Positions 5,044 to 25,803 of a stretch of 26,400 nt of DNA are shown in pieces (the first letter of the stretch is position 1; every line of letters begins with the position of its first letter). The position numbers and the translations under genes were made by a program. The notes beneath the pieces were generated by a model, which was given only the letters and a program-made list of their open reading frames with translations, had not been told where the DNA came from and did no database searches. Origin of the DNA: a virus (taxonomy: Duplodnaviria; Caudoviricetes); IMG/VR virus record IMGVR_UViG_3300042505_000658, positions 1 through 26,400 of that record; one strand, 5' to 3'.

Positions 5044-5444
5044 CAATGGCCCCCAAGGTATGTCAGTTTGCCTAAGTCTAGCACATCTTGGTGAAACTAT
5101 AGGCATTTGTGGTAGGGCAATATTTGGAATCGTTTAAATCAATTCTGATGCGTTTCAAATGTTTTTGGAGTCTATGTATTAGAAAACTGTTTTGTGAGAT
5201 TCTAGGCCAGTCTGAGGGCTTTTAAATTATGGTCAGGTTTATTACTTCAAATCCCAAAATGGATTTTGGATTTTCAAAAACCAAATTTCAAAATCCCAAA
5301 CAGCCCTATAGGGAGTTTTTTCCAGCTTTAAAAAAAGGAAAAATTTTGGGCGCGCGTGAGCGTGCGGCGGTAAGGCATTGATATCCCGTAGCCTGCAGTT
5401 TTCACTGGGTTTTTTGTGGTTTTCGTTAACCACACCATACATGA

Positions 5445-5460
5445 TGCAATGCCCGCGCCA
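5445..5460 (-). promoter_or_regulatory. Sigma-54 (-24/-12) promoter P1, leftward
   Basis: Minus strand TGGCGCGGGCATTGCA has GG-N10-GC and TTGCA, matching TGGCACG-N4-TTGCW with 1 mismatch. Confidence 0.75.
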
Positions 5461-5465
5461 AGTCG

Positions 5466-5478
5466 TAAGTGCTTGATT
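5466..5478 (-). promoter_or_regulatory. IHF binding site
   Basis: Minus strand AATCAAGCACTTA is an exact WATCAA-N4-TTR match, 5 bp upstream of P1. Confidence 0.7.
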
Positions 5479-5502
5479 TTACTAGAGCACCATCCTGCCA
5501 AG

Positions 5503-5539
5503 TGTCAGGTTTTTAGACAAACTGTCAAATGATTATACA
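5503..5539. promoter_or_regulatory. Tandem TGT-N11-ACA palindromes (putative enhancer sites)
   Basis: TGTCAGGTTTTTAGACA (5503-5519) and TGTCAAATGATTATACA (5523-5539), 20 bp apart, centred between P1 and P2. Confidence 0.65.
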
Positions 5540-5563
5540 CACAAAACACCCGCAGCCCTTGCG

Positions 5564-5576
5564 GTTCAATGGTTTG
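5564..5576 (+). promoter_or_regulatory. Degenerate IHF site
   Basis: GTTCAATGGTTTG (TCAA-N4-TTG core, 2 mismatches), 5 bp upstream of P2 and 24 bp from the palindrome. Confidence 0.5.
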
Positions 5577-5581
5577 TCGCT

Positions 5582-5597
5582 TGGCACGATGCATGCA
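5582..5597 (+). promoter_or_regulatory. Sigma-54 (-24/-12) promoter P2, rightward into the small-gene cluster
   Basis: TGGCACGATGCATGCA has a perfect TGGCACG and GG-N10-GC spacing; predicted +1 near 5608, about 43 nt before ATG 5651. Confidence 0.75.
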
Positions 5598-5650
5598 CTA
5601 ACGGCTATATCCCGTCGATGGTCGACCGGAACAAACAAAGGAAAAGCATC

Positions 5651-5917
5651 ATGGACATCAAAGCAAAAGCAATTAAGGCTCAAACTATCAGGGAACAAGT
5701 AAAAGCACTAGAGAATGAACTATCGCCCATACTAGACGAAATTAAAGGTTTTATGGGAGATCAAACCGTAGTCACTTTAGGCGATATCGTTTTGATTCTA
5801 TCTGAGGTCACTAGGACTGACTTGGACAAAAAAGCACTAACCGTTGAACTAGGTGACGCCATAAAGCGGTTTGAGAAAAAAACTGCTTACAAAAAACTAG
5901 AAATCAAGAGGGCGTGA
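5651..5917 (+). CDS. Hypothetical protein (88 aa; coiled coil plus DLDKKAL motif)
   Basis: AAAGGA RBS before ATG 5651; first gene after P2. Confidence 0.75.
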   Translation: MDIKAKAIKAQTIREQVKALENELSPILDEIKGFMGDQTVVTLGDIVLILSEVTRTDLDKKALTVELGDAIKRFEKKTAYKKLEIKRA

Positions 5918-5919
5918 TC

Positions 5920-6048
5920 ATGGCCAAAATAATTAACTTCTATGACTACGTTTATAAAACAGTCGCGCCAATAGTAGCAGAAAAAACTAAAACCAAAAAA
6001 CCTAAGAAACAAAAACGCAAACCATACATTGAAGGGGTACCTTTCTAA
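5920..6048 (+). CDS. Small basic hypothetical protein (42 aa), absent from the ORF track
   Basis: MAKIINFYDYVYKTVAPIVAEKTKTKKPKKQKRKPYIEGVPF; GAGGG RBS; fills the gap exactly and ends in a TAATG overlap with the next start. Confidence 0.7.
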   Translation: MAKIINFYDYVYKTVAPIVAEKTKTKKPKKQKRKPYIEGVPF

Positions 6049-6743
6049 TGAAACTACTGACACCAGAAATCAGCTCTCCAAAATTAGCTAAGAGTGAAAG
6101 CGACAAATATCTAACGGCTATCTTATATCTAGCGGGTGCTGCAGACCATCGTCTATGCCCGGCTAGTACGGAAGGGTGTCGCGCTCACTGTTTAGTCACT
6201 GAAAGCGGCCGCGGTATAATGGAAACGGTTAGGTTAGCGCGTCAACAAAGGACTAATTTTCTTTTCAACAATCGCTCCGGTTTTATGTATATCCTGGCAA
6301 AAGATATCCGCGCCTTAATTAAAAAGGCTAAGAAGCTAGGGAAAATGCCATGTGTCCGACTAAACGGCGGCAGCGATCTAGACTGGTCAGACGTCTATAC
6401 GTCTTTTCCTGATGTGCTTTTTTGGGAGTATACGAAACGGCCTGACCTTGCTGTCAAAAACCATCGTTTGCTCAATGTTCACATGACCTATAGCTATAAC
6501 GAAAACACTAGCACGCGCGTTATGGCTGATATTTTAGACCGTGGCATAAACGTCGCTATGGTTTTTGATATTTGGTCACGTCACGGTGGAGCGTTACCTG
6601 ACCGTGTTGGTACTGTACCGGTTATAGACGGCGATATATCTGATTTACGTTTCCTTGACCCTAAGGGCGTTATCGTCGGACTAAGACTAAAATCAGCAAA
6701 AAAACCTCAACCATCGACCACCAATTTTCTACGAAAGGCATAA
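6048..6743 (+). CDS. GP88-like phage protein (231 aa)
   Basis: LCPASTEGCRAHCL (Cx6Cx3C), SGRG, VRLNGGSDLDW, EYTK, NVAMVF and IDGDISDLRFLDPKGVIVGL, recognised as the GP88 pattern. Confidence 0.8.
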   Translation: MKLLTPEISSPKLAKSESDKYLTAILYLAGAADHRLCPASTEGCRAHCLVTESGRGIMETVRLARQQRTNFLFNNRSGFMYILAKDIRALIKKAKKLGKMPCVRLNGGSDLDWSDVYTSFPDVLFWEYTKRPDLAVKNHRLLNVHMTYSYNENTSTRVMADILDRGINVAMVFDIWSRHGGALPDRVGTVPVIDGDISDLRFLDPKGVIVGLRLKSAKKPQPSTTNFLRKA

Positions 6744-6745
6744 CC

Positions 6746-7090
6746 ATGTTGACCACTATCAAACTAAACAACAAAACAGGACTCCTGGTAAGAAATACAC
6801 TAAGGCTAGAAACGAGTAAATGCATAACGAGCAAACAATTGACCACTATGGCTAGTGTCTGTTCAGTTGAGGGAAACATCTTACAGTTTGTCATGTTTAC
6901 TGATTATCTAAAATCAGTCATTAGGACAGACAAACGCGCGACCAAGAAAAATATAGCTGAACAGCATCAGAAAGCACTAAACCAATTGGCCATTATCATG
7001 GTTGAAGCTATAGCGCATTATCAGCAAAAAAATATGACGCTAGATATAGACTGCAATGTTTTCAGCACTACAAATAACTATGTGAGGTGA
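6746..7090 (+). CDS. Hypothetical protein (114 aa)
   Basis: Starts 2 bp after the previous stop; AAGG RBS. Confidence 0.75.
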   Translation: MLTTIKLNNKTGLLVRNTLRLETSKCITSKQLTTMASVCSVEGNILQFVMFTDYLKSVIRTDKRATKKNIAEQHQKALNQLAIIMVEAIAHYQQKNMTLDIDCNVFSTTNNYVR

Positions 7091-7093
7091 AAC

Positions 7094-7339
7094 ATGAAAC
7101 AAGTAAACGACCACATGGCTCAAACTATCTTTAAAAATATCCTTAGAGACTTCTGTTCTATGACGATGTTTTGTAGCGTTACTGGAGAGATATTAGATTA
7201 TCGTGACGCGGTTATATTAAAACAGGGCGATAGTGAACAGGTTATAAGTAAGTCAGGCCTGAAAGCACTAATTAAAAAACACGGCGCGGAGAAAGTAAAC
7301 GCGTTAGTGGCGACGCCAGAAACTTATTTTAAGGGGTGA
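7094..7339 (+). CDS. Hypothetical protein (81 aa)
   Basis: GAGGTG RBS, tight packing. Confidence 0.75.
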   Translation: MKQVNDHMAQTIFKNILRDFCSMTMFCSVTGEILDYRDAVILKQGDSEQVISKSGLKALIKKHGAEKVNALVATPETYFKG

Positions 7340-7342
7340 AAC

Positions 7343-7714
7343 ATGAAAATAAAACCAACACAAAATAACGATAGCAGTTGGGATCTAAGCAAACAGTCTA
7401 AAGAGTGGAAAATTAGGTACATAAAAATTAAGTGTAAGAAGGATGTTCGATGGGTGTCTAATTGGTTTGTTGAATACATTGACGGATATCATGACTGGAA
7501 TAGATGCTTTCAACCACCGCCAATAGAAACATGGCTGAAACATCGCGGCATAAAACTAAAAACATCAAACGACCTAATGGACAACTTTAAAAATAAAAAT
7601 CAAGGTGCCGGTCATTTTTTGGAACATCTAGAATACTGCAGATATTTTCATGAAATGAACGACATCGAACATGACAGAAAATTAGGCGTTAAGTTTCCTG
7701 TTTGTGTTAAATAA
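7343..7714 (+). CDS. Hypothetical protein (123 aa)
   Basis: GGGGTG RBS, tight packing. Confidence 0.7.
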   Translation: MKIKPTQNNDSSWDLSKQSKEWKIRYIKIKCKKDVRWVSNWFVEYIDGYHDWNRCFQPPPIETWLKHRGIKLKTSNDLMDNFKNKNQGAGHFLEHLEYCRYFHEMNDIEHDRKLGVKFPVCVK

Positions 7715-7731
7715 AACTAAAAGGGTGAAAC

Positions 7732-7950
7732 ATGAAAGTCTATAAGACCGTCGAACATGACAAGTATAGGGTGACAGTAGAAAGTTTAGGCAATGATAGC
7801 TATCTAGCTACCTACTGGGATAAGGGTGCTTATGCCTATGAGAGTGACAGGGATATCTATATGTATAAGACGCTAGCTGAGGCCTATGAGAAAGCACTAG
7901 AGATAGTGGCTGAGGAAAATATACTCAAGGTATATAACCATGGTCTGTGA
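7732..7950 (+). CDS. Hypothetical protein (72 aa, Tyr-rich)
   Basis: GGGTG RBS; followed by a terminator. Confidence 0.75.
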   Translation: MKVYKTVEHDKYRVTVESLGNDSYLATYWDKGAYAYESDRDIYMYKTLAEAYEKALEIVAEENILKVYNHGL

Positions 7951-7971
7951 GGGAAAAGACACTTAGGCATT

Positions 7972-7996
7972 AAGACCGCTGTAAGGCGGTTTTTTT
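7972..7996 (+). terminator. Rho-independent terminator closing the small-gene operon
   Basis: ACCGCT-GTAA-GGCGGT stem with a GNRA loop, followed by a T run, about 20 bp after the last stop. Confidence 0.85.
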
Positions 7997-8249
7997 GCGT
8001 TTAGGGGAAAGGTATAGGGAAAGGTATATGGTCAGCGCGTAACTATCGCGCCTTATTTATTTAAAACAGGCAGACGCTGCAGCACCGTTTTTAAGGCCCT
8101 CTCTCTGCCTGACCATGTCGATATATTCTAAGACAGCCTAACGCGTCAGAGGCCTATTTGCGGCCTTTTAAAGCGACATCCTAGATAGTGCTATGATGCT
8201 GCAGGGATATAACTATAGGCGTTCAATATACTAGTGTTAAATGAACCGC

Positions 8250-8266
8250 TGTCTAAAATATTGACA
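8250..8266. promoter_or_regulatory. TGTC-N9-GACA palindrome (putative enhancer site for P3)
   Basis: TGTCTAAAATATTGACA, 25 bp upstream of the IHF-like box. Confidence 0.6.
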
Positions 8267-8291
8267 CGCTATTAGTGGTGTCTGTCAATGA

Positions 8292-8304
8292 TATCAGACT
8301 GTTA
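8292..8304 (+). promoter_or_regulatory. IHF-like site
   Basis: TATCAGACTGTTA (WATCAR-N4-TTR), 5 bp upstream of P3. Confidence 0.6.
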
Positions 8305-8309
8305 CAGCT

Positions 8310-8325
8310 TGGAACAGAGCTTGCA
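8310..8325 (+). promoter_or_regulatory. Sigma-54 (-24/-12) promoter P3, rightward
   Basis: TGGAACAGAGCTTGCA has GG-N10-GC with TTGCA; same upstream architecture as P1 and P2. Confidence 0.7.
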
Positions 8326-8399
8326 ATGATATTAGTAAGGCGACGGGAAAAGGTTCCATTCGCAAACAAGAAAGGAAACGCAAGCGCAAACTAAAGAAA

Positions 8400-8441
8400 T
8401 ATCAAACACTTAAAACAAACAGCAGCGATATCAAGCTGTTA
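8400..8441 (+). promoter_or_regulatory. Two perfect IHF consensus sites
   Basis: TATCAAACACTTA (8400-8412) and TATCAAGCTGTTA (8429-8441). Confidence 0.65.
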
Positions 8442-8448
8442 ACAAAGG

Positions 8449-8503
8449 TGTCAAAAGTTTGGACAAACTGTCAAAATTCCTGACAGGTGTCAGAAAACTG
8501 ACA
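8449..8503. repeat. Three tandem TGTC-N8/9-GACA palindromes
   Basis: TGTCAAAAGTTTGGACA (8449-8465), TGTCAAAATTCCTGACA (8469-8485), TGTCAGAAAACTGACA (8488-8503). Confidence 0.85.
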
Positions 8504-8642
8504 GGGGGGGTGGGGGTCTACTTGCGATTGCAATTTGCATTGCCCCCCTCAAAAAATTCGCAAACAATCCTTGCACTATTCTTATTCCCCTACTAAGGCT
8601 ATATTAGAATCTTCATAAAACCTTTACTAACGAGGTATTTTT

Positions 8643-9530
8643 ATGGCCAGACAGCCAGGTAGGCCGAAGGTAGTGCCTGATGAGGCTATTTCAGCCTTAT
8701 ATGACCCTCAAAATCCAGATGCTTTACTGAACAGGTTGCCTCCTAGATTGGTGCCTATCTTAGAGCGTGTGCGGAACAAACTGCCTAGGACATTGATGCT
8801 GACTGAGAGGGAGATCAGGACGCAGTGCCAGCCTGATGAGCGTGACGAGCGTGTCAGGTTATCGTTCTGGGATGAGTATAATGCGGCTACTGCTAGCGGC
8901 AAGAAGATGGCTTTACAGTCGATCATCTGTGGTGCTGTGAGCTGGGAGATGTGGGTATCTGGCTATGAGCCTAACAATAAGCGTATGCTTTGGATCTTTA
9001 CCCCGCCGGTCAGTTATGCGATCCAGATGAGACATATCTTGCATAAGGGAACTGAGCGTCTTTTAGAAATTATGAACCTTCCTATGTTGGGTGAAGACGG
9101 CAAGGTAGATACGAAGGTAGCGACCCTTATTTTGAAGGCATGGCAGTTAGCTGATATGCGTATAAAGGGTGGTATTGTTCAGCGTATGCAAGTTGAGCAA
9201 AAGTCTGTGAATGTAAACTTTAACTCTGAGCAACCTGTAGATCAGCTTAGGGAGCAGGTTAGTGGTTTACAGTTAGAGGATCTTGAGACGTTAGAGCGCA
9301 GGATTGAGAAGGCTAAGAGGGATCAGCATAGGTATTTAAAGCACTATGACGGGGACATTAAGTCTCTGATTAAGAGTGGTGATCAAGAGATTTTGGATGA
9401 TGTGGAGACTGTCACAAGGCATGGTCAGCGGATGATGATGCCAGACATTCCAGAGTTGCCTGATATTGAACTAAAGTTTGAAGAGGTCACGGATGGCCAA
9501 GAAGAAGCAGAGCCGCGAAGCACGCATTGA
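8643..9530 (+). CDS. Putative terminase small subunit (295 aa)
   Basis: GAGGT RBS; N-terminal PGRPK; directly upstream of and overlapping terL. The function is inferred from position only. Confidence 0.5.
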   Translation: MARQPGRPKVVPDEAISALYDPQNPDALLNRLPPRLVPILERVRNKLPRTLMLTEREIRTQCQPDERDERVRLSFWDEYNAATASGKKMALQSIICGAVSWEMWVSGYEPNNKRMLWIFTPPVSYAIQMRHILHKGTERLLEIMNLPMLGEDGKVDTKVATLILKAWQLADMRIKGGIVQRMQVEQKSVNVNFNSEQPVDQLREQVSGLQLEDLETLERRIEKAKRDQHRYLKHYDGDIKSLIKSGDQEILDDVETVTRHGQRMMMPDIPELPDIELKFEEVTDGQEEAEPRSTH

Positions 9531-14523: not shown

Positions 14524-15777
14524 ATGGCAACAGTAGTAAATAGTTCGTTTCAGTCGATGCTCAATGAGTATCTACCGAACCGCATGATCATGGAAGAGCT
14601 AGTTAAGCGTGACTGGTTTCTTTCTAACCTAGAAATTGATAACGGCTGGCAAGGCTCTAAGATCATCGTTCCTTTCAAAGGAGCTGGTGCATCTTCGGTT
14701 GAGTTTGGTCAATTGGCAGAAGTAACTGATATCTCTCAATCAGTTTATGTTCGTGGCGAAATTCCAACATACGTAGAAGCTTGGGCTTCTCTTTTGTTTA
14801 ACCACAGGGATCTTTTAGATGCCGAAGGAAAAATTCCTGAAGCTACTTTCTTGAAAATTCTTCCAGGCGAAGTTGACGCTATGGTTGATTACTTCAAGCA
14901 AGTTGTATCTACATCTCTTGGCGCAGGTAGCCACTTCGCTAAAGCTGTAGAAGCTGGTACTGCTGGCGGCGAACTAGAAGTAGATCATGTTGATCGCTTC
15001 CAAATTGGCCAAAAAGTAGAGCTTAAAGATGGCGCAGAAGCTACTATTGTTGCTTACGTTAGATCTATTGACGTAAACAGCACATCATCCGGTGGAACTG
15101 GAACTGTAACGCTCTATGACGCGCGCACTGGCGGATCTCCAAAAAATTTAAGCACATTGGCTGTTGGATCTAAATGTTACCACCCAGGTGCTTTGGCTGG
15201 CTCATTTACTTCGATCCGCGAAGTTCTTTTGAGCGTAGCGAATGGTGGCTCTGCTGATGTTCACGGCGTTAGCAAACTTGCTTACCCAATTTTGCAAGCT
15301 GTTAACATTAACGGAGCAAGTGTTACTGCTTCAAACATTTTGGACAAATTGTTTGATGGTTACACCGAAGTTCGTCGTAAAGCTAAAGGCAACGCTAATA
15401 CGATTGTTATGTCGTTTAAGCACCTTGGCTCTATTATGAAGCTAATTGAAACCCAAAAAGGCCCATTCGCTGTTACGAAGCAACCAAGTGCTTCGCTATA
15501 CGGATGGACTGAGCTGGAAGTTACTAGCGTAAAGGGGTCGTTAAAACTCATCGGTTTAATTGAGCTTGATGATGACGTGATCATGTATCTTGATCTCAAA
15601 TCGATGGTATTCCGTACCCGTGGCGGATTCCGTAAGCGCAAATCTCCTGAAGGCAAAGAATATTTTGAAATCAGGGGTGTCGATGGGTTTAAATACGTAG
15701 TCGACATGTGCCTTTTTGGGCAGCTTGAAGTTAACGCTCCAGGCCACAACGCAATTATGTACGGCATCAGTTACTAA
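14524..15777 (+). CDS. Major capsid protein (417 aa)
   Basis: Position after the scaffold, AAGGAG RBS, GCT/GTT-biased codons, multiple stops and a downstream hairpin; size fits an HK97 fold with an insertion domain. Confidence 0.8.
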   Translation: MATVVNSSFQSMLNEYLPNRMIMEELVKRDWFLSNLEIDNGWQGSKIIVPFKGAGASSVEFGQLAEVTDISQSVYVRGEIPTYVEAWASLLFNHRDLLDAEGKIPEATFLKILPGEVDAMVDYFKQVVSTSLGAGSHFAKAVEAGTAGGELEVDHVDRFQIGQKVELKDGAEATIVAYVRSIDVNSTSSGGTGTVTLYDARTGGSPKNLSTLAVGSKCYHPGALAGSFTSIREVLLSVANGGSADVHGVSKLAYPILQAVNINGASVTASNILDKLFDGYTEVRRKAKGNANTIVMSFKHLGSIMKLIETQKGPFAVTKQPSASLYGWTELEVTSVKGSLKLIGLIELDDDVIMYLDLKSMVFRTRGGFRKRKSPEGKEYFEIRGVDGFKYVVDMCLFGQLEVNAPGHNAIMYGISY

Positions 15778-22836: not shown

Positions 22837-25803
22837 ATGGTAGAGAAGATAGAGCTAGAAGACTTCTCTGGCGGCGTGACTGACTATTATTTGTCTGCGC
22901 CACCTAACAAGATGCGCGATTGTGACAACTTGTTGATCAATCAGTATCAAAACCAAGGCAAAGTATTTACTAGGCCAGGATCTGTTTTGTATGACAAGAC
23001 CGCAGATAGGCCGGATGCTAATAGGGCTACAACTTGTTTTTATTATAAAGACAAGCTTTATGTGCAAATTGCTGGAAATTTATTCTATTACAAGAGCACT
23101 ACAGTCATGGCAACAGCTTTAGTAGCTGGAGAAGTATATCAAATTACAGATCTTGGAAGCACAAACTTTGTTTTGGTTGGCGCAAAAACAAATGAAGTTG
23201 GAGTTTATTTTACGGCCAGCGGCCCTGGATTAGGAACAGGAAGCGTAAGAAAAGGCATATGGGAATTTGTTGATGTTCCAGACGATAATTTTGCTTTCCC
23301 AGGAACAATAAACGTGCCAGAAGAGCCGCCGCACCAATTTACATACGACAACTGGAACTATCACACTCTTATAGCCAACTCATCTCTTCCTGGCTATCCG
23401 ATGAAGGTTTTGCAAAATGGAGATTCTATTTCTCTTGTACAAGCCGGACTTCCAAAACCAGATAGTTCTCTTGTTCGTTTTGAATTTACAACGACAACGG
23501 TTAATGCTGGAAGTTTTATAGTAGGACAAAAATATGTAATAAAATTTGTTGGAACAACAAACTTTGTAGCAATCGGAGCATCAAGTAATACTGTTGGAGT
23601 TGAATTTACCGCGACCGGAGTTGGATCTGGCACAGGAACGGCAGATAAGGCTTGGAATTTAAGTTATCTATATAAATTTGTTTATAGAAGAGAGTATACA
23701 GTTGGTCCATATGATGAAAATGTATTGAATGTTTTTAATTTAAAAGAAAACAAACTTTACAGAATAAACTCTATTGGAACCACTAACTTTAAACTTCTTG
23801 GCGCAACAGATAATGTTGTTGGTTTATATTTTAGAGCAAATGGCGTAAACGGAGTTGGTCTTGGAGACGGAACAGTAACAGAAACAGATTCTGATTTTTT
23901 TGTAGATTTGGGTTCGCCAAGTTTACCAGCAACTGCAAACAACAAAGCAATGAATCCAATAGGCCCTTCTGCGGCAAATAGTGTGTTTATCGATTCGTTT
24001 TCAAATAAAACAGTTTTAGCTACGAATCTTGTTGTTGGTCAGAAGTATGAAATAAAATCAGTTGGAACTACTAATTTCACAACAGTTGGTGCTGCGTCAA
24101 ATACAATCGGCATTACTTTTTTTGCAACCGGAATAGGTACTGGTGACGGCACTGTTTATGAATTATTAAACACAACAGAAACAAACTTTGATGAATCTAA
24201 AATGTTGATAGACATATATAGAACAACAAATAACGGAACAAATTATTATTTTTTGACTACAGTTCCATATGGAACGATTTCATATTCAGACACAACATCG
24301 GACGAAGATTTAACATTAAGAGAGCCTCTTTATACAAACGGTGGAGTCGTTGCAAATGATCTTCCACCAAAATGCAGAAGCATACATATACGAAATGATA
24401 TTGCTTATTACGGCGGCATACTTGGCCAATCATACAGACTTTTGCAAGCTGTTCCTGGCGATATAGATTCTGTTCCTGAAACATTTTATGTCGATGTAGA
24501 CGATGAGATTGTTGCTGTATCTTCAACCAAAAATAACGTCATTATTTTGTGCAAAGAAAAGGTGTACAGGGTAGACGGTATATTTGATGAGCTTGGGCGC
24601 GGAGGAATGGTCGTAGAGCGTATTAGTGATACGGCTGGATGTATTGGTGTTAATACACCAGTTCAGGCTCTTGACGGCGTAATGTGGCTTGGCAAAGAGG
24701 CCGTTTATTTCACAGATGGATTTAGAGTTATTAAGCTAAATCAAGACTACGACAAAACGTATAAGAGCTTTACTGATTTTGATTCTAGGAATGTAAAGTA
24801 CCAAGGAAAATACGATAACAAGAAAAATCGTGTTTGGTGGACTGTACAAGACGAAGACGCTAGTGATTTAAACAAATGTTACGTCTTAGATCTCAACTGG
24901 GGAATCAGAGAAAACTCCACGTTTACTACTGTTACCGGAGACAGCTTTGCTCCGTCTGCTATTGAGTTTATCAATGGCAATATGGTTCGCTGTGATGTCA
25001 ACGGATACGTCTTATATCACCAAGACACGCTCTTTACTGATCCTAAAATTGGTAGTGCCGCGTCTGTTCTTGATTGGAGAGATGAGGTTATTGTTTATAA
25101 CCTAGAAACATCGTCTTATAACTTTGGAACATCTGCGGTCAGAAAATATGTCACACAGGCCAATGTTACCTGTGAATCAACTACCAACTTGTCTCTAAGG
25201 ATTGTGAGCAATAACGATGATGATCGTATTGTGGCAGACCTTTTGCCCATTAGATCGCGCGGCAAAATTTTGTGGGGTGAGCCAGATGTTTATTGGGGTG
25301 ATTATACCCTAGACTGGAATAAACAAGGGCTTATTCATGAAAAGCGTTTAATGCCAGCTAAAAGCCTTAGATGTAACTATAAAAGCCTTAAATTTACTAA
25401 TGCTCACGTTGCAATTGTATCAAGCGATATAATATCAAATGCAAATGTTAATTCTACATTAAAACACGTTACTTTAGTTGGTAAAATAATAATAGTAGAT
25501 GGCTTAGACGTAGTTGTTGCTGATAAATGGCCCACAAAATCTATTGGTTATTTTATAGCTTTTGAAGACGACTTTACCAAAGAATATGAGATCACTGGCC
25601 TGAGTGGCGATGAGAAAATCATTACCTATTCAGACCCGCTAGGAACGTCTTTAAACGGCTCAAACAAGAAGTGGGTAATCAGGGGCCGTCCTCTTGGCGA
25701 AGTCCTCAATTTGCTTAATTTGTCCCTTATTTACGATATTGCTGGGCCAAGTCAAGGAGCTTACAAAGTGTCTAATAGTGGAGAGGCGGGGACTAACCAA
25801 TGA
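22837..25803 (+). CDS. Putative tail nozzle / stabilization protein (P22 gp10- or T7 gp12-like) with four inserted repeats (988 aa)
   Basis: DFSGG...N......G...TRPG N-terminus, beta-propeller-like blades, ISDTAGC, CYVLDL and YNFG...RK typical of podovirus nozzle proteins. Confidence 0.7.
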   Translation: MVEKIELEDFSGGVTDYYLSAPPNKMRDCDNLLINQYQNQGKVFTRPGSVLYDKTADRPDANRATTCFYYKDKLYVQIAGNLFYYKSTTVMATALVAGEVYQITDLGSTNFVLVGAKTNEVGVYFTASGPGLGTGSVRKGIWEFVDVPDDNFAFPGTINVPEEPPHQFTYDNWNYHTLIANSSLPGYPMKVLQNGDSISLVQAGLPKPDSSLVRFEFTTTTVNAGSFIVGQKYVIKFVGTTNFVAIGASSNTVGVEFTATGVGSGTGTADKAWNLSYLYKFVYRREYTVGPYDENVLNVFNLKENKLYRINSIGTTNFKLLGATDNVVGLYFRANGVNGVGLGDGTVTETDSDFFVDLGSPSLPATANNKAMNPIGPSAANSVFIDSFSNKTVLATNLVVGQKYEIKSVGTTNFTTVGAASNTIGITFFATGIGTGDGTVYELLNTTETNFDESKMLIDIYRTTNNGTNYYFLTTVPYGTISYSDTTSDEDLTLREPLYTNGGVVANDLPPKCRSIHIRNDIAYYGGILGQSYRLLQAVPGDIDSVPETFYVDVDDEIVAVSSTKNNVIILCKEKVYRVDGIFDELGRGGMVVERISDTAGCIGVNTPVQALDGVMWLGKEAVYFTDGFRVIKLNQDYDKTYKSFTDFDSRNVKYQGKYDNKKNRVWWTVQDEDASDLNKCYVLDLNWGIRENSTFTTVTGDSFAPSAIEFINGNMVRCDVNGYVLYHQDTLFTDPKIGSAASVLDWRDEVIVYNLETSSYNFGTSAVRKYVTQANVTCESTTNLSLRIVSNNDDDRIVADLLPIRSRGKILWGEPDVYWGDYTLDWNKQGLIHEKRLMPAKSLRCNYKSLKFTNAHVAIVSSDIISNANVNSTLKHVTLVGKIIIVDGLDVVVADKWPTKSIGYFIAFEDDFTKEYEITGLSGDEKIITYSDPLGTSLNGSNKKWVIRGRPLGEVLNLLNLSLIYDIAGPSQGAYKVSNSGEAGTNQ
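23110..24156 (+). repeat. Four dispersed 46-49-aa coding repeats
   Basis: Copies at 23110-23247, 23506-23643, 23731-23877 and 24019-24156; consensus YxIxxxG(T/S)TNFxxxGAxxNxxGxxFxAxG..GxGxV/A. Confidence 0.9.

Follow-up and report, generated by a model that had tools for sequence, protein, structure and literature searches.

Sigma-54-type enhancer promoters of an uncultured tailed phage resemble a promoter layout of Bdellovibrionota and may respond to prey entry

How might a phage tie the expression of its genes to the life cycle of its host? The question is raised by IMG/VR record IMGVR_UViG_3300042505_000658, of which we analyzed positions 1 to 26,400 (hereafter called the window; 26.4 kb), a stretch of an uncultured tailed phage that is present in 24 lake-water metagenome runs. 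The window carries three copies (P1, P2 and P3) of a module consisting of a palindrome, a box resembling the binding site of integration host factor (IHF), and a −24/−12 promoter core of the sigma-54 type. The feature is real and conserved. With moderate confidence, we read the phage modules as matching a promoter layout of the Bdellovibrionota, and predict from the sequences that P2 fires only with an active host enhancer-binding protein, likely at prey entry. This fits the known theme of phages borrowing host regulators, while the host regulon is apparently unreported: our searches of open-access texts turned up neither a sigma-54 regulon nor this box in Bdellovibrio, and no phage enhancer module.

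Three sigma-54-type modules in the window

Sigma-54 polymerase requires an AAA+ activator, and at IHF-assisted promoters such as pspA, nifH and glnHp2, the activator site, IHF site and −24/−12 core follow each other in the same order as here. The elements of the three modules are listed below, with palindrome scores on a matrix trained on host boxes.

5503..5519, unstranded: P1 palindrome (15.7 bits)
5466..5478, minus strand: P1 IHF-like box AATCAAGCACTTA, 24 nt from the palindrome and followed by CGACT; perfect consensus match, likewise in the relatives L015 and L016
5445..5460, minus strand: P1 −24/−12 core TGGCGCGGGCATTGCA, predicted start near 5434
5523..5539, unstranded: P2 palindrome, predicted activator site (15.4 bits, in the top five of the window)
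5564..5576, plus strand: P2 IHF-like box GTTCAATGGTTTG, 24 nt after the palindrome and followed by TCGCT
5582..5597, plus strand: P2 −24/−12 core TGGCACGATGCATGCA, predicted start near 5608
8250..8266, unstranded: P3 palindrome (20.3 bits, rank 1; best match to the host box)
8292..8304, plus strand: P3 IHF-like box TATCAGACTGTTA, 25 nt after the palindrome and followed by CAGCT
8310..8325, plus strand: P3 −24/−12 core TGGAACAGAGCTTGCA, predicted start near 8336, facing a G-run element and the terminase/structural operon

Every coordinate given for these modules in a preliminary description was verified in the sequence. The gaps between palindrome and TGG are 42 (P1), 42 (P2) and 43 nt (P3), and each IHF-like box lies 5 nt before its core, with zero, two and one mismatches, respectively, to the IHF consensus. 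The GG-N10-GC cores have one mismatch each to the sigma-54 consensus and score 11.7–15.2 bits on the host-trained matrix. Taken alone, the core patterns are within chance, as TGG-N9-TGCW occurs 12 times vs. 8.6 expected (reached in 50 of 300 shuffles) and CTTGG-N9-TGC three times vs. 1.1 (28 of 300). An IHF-like box 5 nt ahead of a core occurs three times vs. 0.10 expected and the composite module three times vs. 0.003, neither being reached in any of 300 shuffles, with the patterns themselves derived from the three sites. The view that the modules are chance matches can point to how common each single element is, yet it is already refuted by the composite count, by the preservation of the modules in relatives despite changed spacers, and by scores of about 30 bits vs. 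less than 5 elsewhere.

The initial proposal, promoters of the sigma-54 type that carry a palindrome of the activator-binding kind upstream, is supported. The accompanying comparison with NifA does not fit, because the boxes are 17-bp TGT-N11-ACA instead of 16-bp TGT-N10-ACA motifs; NtrC/Fis-type sites show such a 17-bp G-N13-C spacing. P1 and P2 diverge from each other, their box centres being 20 bp apart, so that two boxes lie upstream of each core. Two additional boxes (8449–8465 and 8469–8485) and a 16-bp variant (8488–8503) had been overlooked before, and three further perfect matches to the IHF consensus are present at 5371–5383, 8400–8412 and 8429–8441. A sigma-70 scan of the window gave 9 matches vs. 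8.1 expected, which is no excess.

Two other types of site were considered. A Pho box was rejected on account of the 20-bp spacing of the TGTC repeats, vs. 11 or 22 in Pho boxes. Measured against the FleQ-type motif GTC-N8-GAC, the promoter boxes contain N9, and N8 occurs only at 8488–8503; FleQ-like activators do occur in the hosts, and zero flagellar genes were present among the scanned host targets.

The same layout in Bdellovibrionota genomes

The layout, which the preliminary description had suggested looking for in candidate host genomes, is indeed present there. A strict pattern scanned over 185,579 genomes, with the matches sorted by title, gave 61 matches, representing 20 Bdellovibrionota lineages, 13 ambiguous and 28 other cases; all 20 Bdellovibrionota matches are intergenic, vs. 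15 of the 28 others inside open reading frames (ORFs). A looser pattern, which fits P2 and neither the P1 nor the P3 core, was present in 65 of 301 genomes from the Bdellovibrionota, the phylum of G008 (81 matches; none in a backwards control), vs. 1 of 101 in Myxococcota, 2 of 121 in Bacteroidota and 4 of 151 in Pseudomonadota (p ~2e-9 each, centre genomes excluded). These control phyla were centred on Myxococcales, Bacteroidales and Paraburkholderia genomes, and the counts include the centre genome.

The host box has the 17-bp consensus TGTCTAAAnTTTAGACA, as derived from 66 host modules. The distribution of host gaps has one peak at 40 nt (mean 40.2, 81 matches) and a further one at 51 nt (mean 51.0, 25 matches, 151 genomes); because these peaks are one helical turn apart, the upstream palindrome appears to be kept in helical phase. 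The second peak comes from a scan of gaps 49–55 which was meant as a control and matched in 21 of 151 genomes; gaps of 45–48 lay outside the scan. IHF-like boxes in the host spacers occur at a fixed offset, mostly reversed (15 of 24 at 15–16 nt), vs. forward boxes at 5 nt in the phage. The reverse orientation is found in 24 of 66 modules vs. 12.3 in shuffled sequences (maximum 22 in 200 shuffles), the forward one in 18 of 66 vs. 12.5, which is not significant. In both orientations, the first base of WATCAA lies 16–18 nt ahead of TGG, a position which we take to be the centre of the IHF bend. The host-trained box matrix ranks the five window boxes first (15.4–20.3 bits; next 8.6), and a composite matrix from the 66 modules assigns 29.9–32.4 bits to P1–P3, the next best scores being 3.8 in the window and 4.7 in G001, a longer record of the same phage. 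At the inner box positions, P2 scores 3.1 and P3 4.0 vs. a host mean of 4.0.

The host modules are located 8–47 nt ahead of an ATG in 60 of 62 cases, and 57 of 62 downstream ORFs look secreted by a crude rule vs. 36 of 149 in the background. Most targets have no Pfam family; the rest include lytic transglycosylases, subtilases, DUF7844/Lnb_N proteins, phospholipase D, an esterase and a nuclease/phosphatase. A PDB search with one host target protein gave no match. As candidates for the activator, 7–16 genes are present per host genome, with several orthologue groups common to the sampled genomes, and an autoregulation test detected box plus core upstream of 0 of 29 parsed candidates (30 of 53 matches fetched).

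A capsid profile detected members of this family of phages in 4 of 401 genomes from the Bdellovibrionota, with structural genes in order, and in none of 401 and 251 control genomes (p 0.02). Two of the copies (G140 and G050) are accompanied by serine recombinases, repressor-like genes and bacterial flanks and are thus integrated, and those of G285 and G614 lie on contigs of 218 kb and 3.7 Mb. A chromosomal module with at most two mismatches occurs in three of the four genomes holding family prophages. From these comparisons, Bdellovibrionota are the likely host phylum of the phage.

A Bacteroidota host was considered and rejected, given that the layout occurs in only 2 of 121 genomes and that the phage genes have purine-rich leaders resembling ribosome-binding sites (RBS); prophages were not searched in that phylum. 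Separately, five loci from Bacteroidota/Chlorobium (L119, L137, L139, L140 and L143) contain TGTCA-N7-TGACA roughly 40 bp upstream of a sigma-54-like core. Of these, three were scanned and lie ahead of Hsp20, GrpE and GroES genes (GTDB matches), and these boxes possibly represent a separate heat-shock regulon. Locus L124, titled Bacillota, is nearly identical to the Bdellovibrio-titled L117 and is probably a mis-binned contig. At the edge of the G050 prophage, SIR2-like and HerA-like genes (L213, 11647–14578) likely form an anti-phage pair.

Timing of the host target genes

Among the Bdellovibrio targets, the one recurring most often is a transglycosylase gene directly after an adenylate cyclase gene, and the protein cluster holding the 442-aa CAE80838.1 has a representative 79% identical to this target. 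In published expression data, Bd3073 corresponds to it in length (1329 bp, 442 aa) and position after the adenylate cyclase Bd3072 (PMC3627812). Its transcript is listed with 0 reads per kilobase per million (RPKM) in attack phase and 27.4 in growth phase (PMC3627812), the first column being taken as attack phase from the values of fliA (990 vs. 104). The gene also appears in the array sheet of genes up in predation and not in host-independent (HI) growth (2.5x/1.9x, p 0.039; PMC2797640). Bd3868 is placed like a second target, following tatC, tatB and one more gene, and increases from 0.9 to 8.6 RPKM (PMC3627812). Bd0521 is 1.5-fold up at 30 min, is up in HI growth as well, and is flat in RNA-seq (PMC2797640, PMC3627812). 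We dropped Bd3258 as a target because its length of 253 aa fits the neighbouring TetR gene. Transcripts of rpoN are present in attack and growth phase alike (169 and 271 RPKM; PMC3627812), so that regulation would rest with the activator. For attack phase, the Bdellovibrio literature consulted mentions FliA alone, with rpoN appearing only as a listed gene.

P2 heads a variable cassette of small genes

An ATG at 5651, 53 nt past P2, opens a run of small genes with the following features.

5651..7950, plus strand: small-gene cassette with purine-rich RBS-like leaders, including a GP88 (PF17338) gene at 6048–6743
7972..7993, plus strand: terminator-like hairpin followed by a T tail, at the end of the P2 cassette (fold z −4.68)

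Most cassette genes are without a family, and their designation as early genes is inferred from size and position. The preliminary description had linked the promoters to probable early genes, which fits P2 as head of the cassette and does not apply to P1 and P3, where no RBS-led ORF follows for 300–390 nt.

As anticipated for enhancer-dependent sigma-54 promoters, the GG-N10-GC cores are kept in relatives while the flanks diverge (P2 in 6 of 6, P1 in 3 of 6, the P3 core in 6 of 8). P2 is retained in all six close genomes including the window, with a degenerate box in G003 and a gap of 38 in L006, and the gene content of the cassette varies among the same relatives. This combination suggests that the module is mainly the promoter of a variable small-gene cassette. 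P3 occurs as a full module in four of eight aligned genomes and as a core alone in two, and is lost in two. In L015 (3261–4897), genes which we take from their motifs to be amidoligase-like and glutamine-amidotransferase-like replace those of the window behind P2. A long terminal repeat across the cassette was considered and rejected, as contig depth was not doubled in 4 of 24 listed runs; the test is weak because it used contigs only.

The module is also present in more distant phages. We compared 24 distant loci with capsids 39–69% identical and at least 1.2 kb covered upstream of the terminase gene; two carry box and core and two an IHF-like box and core with a poor box, all four before small-gene cassettes. 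Scanning IMG/VR for the layout revealed at least 120 loci (about 190 stretches estimated), with 100 distinct ones among the matches listed, many of them inside ORFs. Four other phages (G653, G657, G654 and G656), whose capsid, portal and terminase have no match to G001, carry the layout. The contractile-tailed G653 contains its five top-scoring modules (19–37 bits) among small genes, and G657 has two modules and G654 and G656 one each, near terminase or structural genes. In addition, dense −24/−12 clusters in both orientations, some 19 bp apart, occur in G657 (L345, 3839–4070, adjoining a G-run) and G653 (23176–23677); a role as sigma-54 polymerase loading or decoy array is possible.

Proposed mechanism and its alternatives

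According to the established general rule, host sigma-54 polymerase would sit on the −24/−12 core of P2 as a closed complex. The geometry suggests that the 17-bp box, whose centre lies about 77 bp upstream, is bound by a host activator, likely the one that turns on genes for secreted prey-attack proteins, and that IHF bends the DNA near −43. Judging from three host targets, one mapped well and two weakly, this activator would be switched on at prey entry, and the cassette would then be transcribed up to the terminator at 7972–7993. A phage in a starving, non-replicating attack-phase cell would consequently wait until the cell is inside prey, the silence of the cassette presumably delaying the phage cycle, and the module may in this way gate infection. 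P1 would probably yield a small RNA and P3 may read into the packaging region, both as accessory promoters. Varon and Levisohn are said to have observed in 1972 that their phage multiplied only in prey-growing Bdellovibrio.

Several observations weigh against this proposal. At 20 of the 24 distant loci, many of them with short cover, there is a core at most and the box-led module is absent; likewise, four Bdellovibrionota prophage regions contain zero box-led modules, and the cultured Bdellovibrio phages phi1402 and phi1422 have none (best scores 10.6 and 12.3 bits; best of 12 shuffles 10.6). The record of phi1402 names a host-independent strain as host, which would imply selection against a prey-entry gate. 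The phage gaps of 42–43 correspond to the shoulder and not the maximum of the host distribution, in which 12 of 81 gaps are 42–44. Because the pattern used to select the host set was derived from the phage boxes, the outer box positions are circular; the inner positions of P1 score −0.6 vs. the host mean of 4.0. None of the activator candidates is singled out. The timing depends on one firm orthologue with modest induction and two weak points: Bd3868 is shorter than the ORF of the relative and only weakly up in the predation-specific sheet (1.4x/1.3x, p 0.057; PMC2797640), and the mapping of Bd0521 to a host target is doubtful.

Many of these points would fit sigma-54 promoters which use a host activator without any prey-entry gate, responding to a general secretion or envelope programme or operating in a non-predatory host from the phylum, so that the module only tunes an accessory cassette and the lytic cycle is driven by other promoters. 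P2 alone is well conserved, and the module is absent from the replication and structural operons, whose transcription may not depend on it; a sigma-70-like pair at 8571–8599 before the terminase operon was noted by eye, below the scan threshold. The layout also occurs in genomes titled Silvanigrella, a genus which is not known to be predatory. The module is missing from the temperate relatives and both cultured phages, and Bd0521 is up in HI growth too. Against this stand the best-mapped target, Bd3073, which is silent in attack phase and, on arrays, specific to predation, and the nature of the targets, with lytic transglycosylases, subtilases, phospholipase D and an esterase among them. We regard an ungated promoter as unlikely, though a serious competitor. 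A smaller chance is given to the boxes being Fis-like architectural or packaging sites, with P1, P3 and the G-run boxes acting on the genome end through short transcripts or held sigma-54 polymerase. Three core-less boxes right before a conserved G-run, the lack of a near ORF at P1 and P3, the bidirectional clusters of G653 and G657 (the latter beside a G-run) and a host consensus compatible with the Fis consensus favour it, but the host module lies just before the ATG with helical phasing, and sigma-54 needs an AAA+ activator regardless, so we consider it improbable overall; it may still hold for P3 alone.

The preliminary description had found no activator or sigma factor in the window. After extending the search to G001 and four relatives, zero PF00158 matches were obtained in the five records at E 0.01, which also bears on an internal cascade in which an unrecognised phage protein activates, or substitutes for, the host activator. 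Such a protein could hide among the cassette genes without a family, and G001 is estimated to be 96% complete. However, P2 precedes the genes that would need to be made first and its box matches a host chromosomal motif, and we consider this cascade very improbable.

Extending the prey-entry reading, we tentatively suggest that several unrelated predator-phage lineages may have converged on one enhancer, that of a so far undescribed prey-entry regulon shared across the phylum, staying silent in the hunting cell and starting inside prey. If true, the boxes of these phages would lead to the master activator of the predatosome, and such phages being missed on host-independent lawns would be explained; this would be a virus waiting for its host to enter another cell. 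The host box provides a handle on the regulator of prey-attack genes and a candidate prey-triggered promoter in Bdellovibrio, which is under development as a living antibiotic, and the motif may be used for assigning hosts to uncultured phages.

Comparison with known systems

The closest parallel is the "lytic deferment" proposed for phages of Alphaproteobacteria with CtrA sites (Mascolo et al. 2022, PMC9437464), where sites for a regulator of the host life cycle occur in unrelated phages ahead of small uncharacterised genes and are proposed to adjust the time of lysis to the state of the host. In that system, the regulator is named, its binding is shown and it is not a sigma-54 activator; the portion of the text consulted does not mention sigma-54. 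In contrast, an off state would be the default here, the complete enhancer geometry is copied and prey entry would be the relevant host state. Virulent Bacillus phage phi29 is likewise held by a host developmental regulator via Spo0A sites, as described in the consulted portion of PMC9437464, but its promoters are repressed in sporulation, as opposed to enhancer activation here. A sigma-54-type phage promoter with a mapped start is P015 of Pseudomonas phage YuA (PMC10914365), a single promoter for which the consulted part names no enhancer, IHF site, activator or link to host state. Relative to the pspA, nifH and glnHp2 types, the half-site TGTCT/AGACA is neither that of NtrC nor of the 16-bp NifA site, and the box is close in, centred at about −77.

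Accessory promoters and genome context

P1 points outward and is directed at the following candidate.

5335..5434, minus strand: candidate small RNA from P1, with a hairpin at its start and a U-rich tract at its end

The predicted P1 start coincides with the hairpin, which L015 and L016 retain with altered base pairs (three sequences only; fold z −1.1 in the window, −2.6 and −4.9 in the relatives). Rfam gave zero matches for this RNA. P1 probably makes a small RNA of about 100 nt.

The region around P3 contains these additional features.

8221..8246, unstranded: second palindrome GTTCAAT...ATGAAC, kept in 8 of 8 aligned relatives including those lacking P3, and thus more conserved than P3
8449..8503, unstranded: the two further 17-bp boxes and the 16-bp variant, in 20-bp and 19-bp steps, without an in-phase sigma-54 core in the window
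8504..8560, unstranded: G-run/C-run element, conserved in 8 of 8 aligned genomes

The G-run/C-run element may be a packaging site, a guess from its position; similar G-runs precede terminase genes in several distant relatives.

Family matches in the window comprise a DnaB helicase, a replication initiator, an endolysin-like peptidase, a metallophosphoesterase, GP88, the large terminase and tail proteins. The family search gave no match for gene 8643–9530 or the 417-aa gene 14524–15777, which we call small terminase and capsid protein, respectively, by position. G001 has 40.6 kb, its two longest blocks being 98% and 97% identical to the window. Its remainder encodes RecT, SSB and VRR-NUC, among others, and G001 yielded neither an integrase nor a sigma factor, an RNA polymerase or a PF00158 activator (25 of 31 ORFs listed for the remainder scanned). 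Among annotated phages, the terminase and capsid proteins have zero relatives; a profile search of 1.84 billion proteins gave a phage family of 282 representatives, and the gene before the terminase gene, used as a metagenome query, retrieved three loci.

In phi1422, gp46 (L415, 24471–24800; 109 aa), located between portal and head genes, is annotated as "putative sigma-54-dependent transcriptional regulator", which is doubtful. The sole recognisable regulator in the window is an Arc-like ribbon-helix-helix gene (621–797), divergent from the lysin/replication operon. Finally, an AT-rich non-coding element at 5240–5325, ending in GCCCTATAGGG and a T-run, is kept in all five aligned relatives and in G003, and possibly represents an origin or a protein array.

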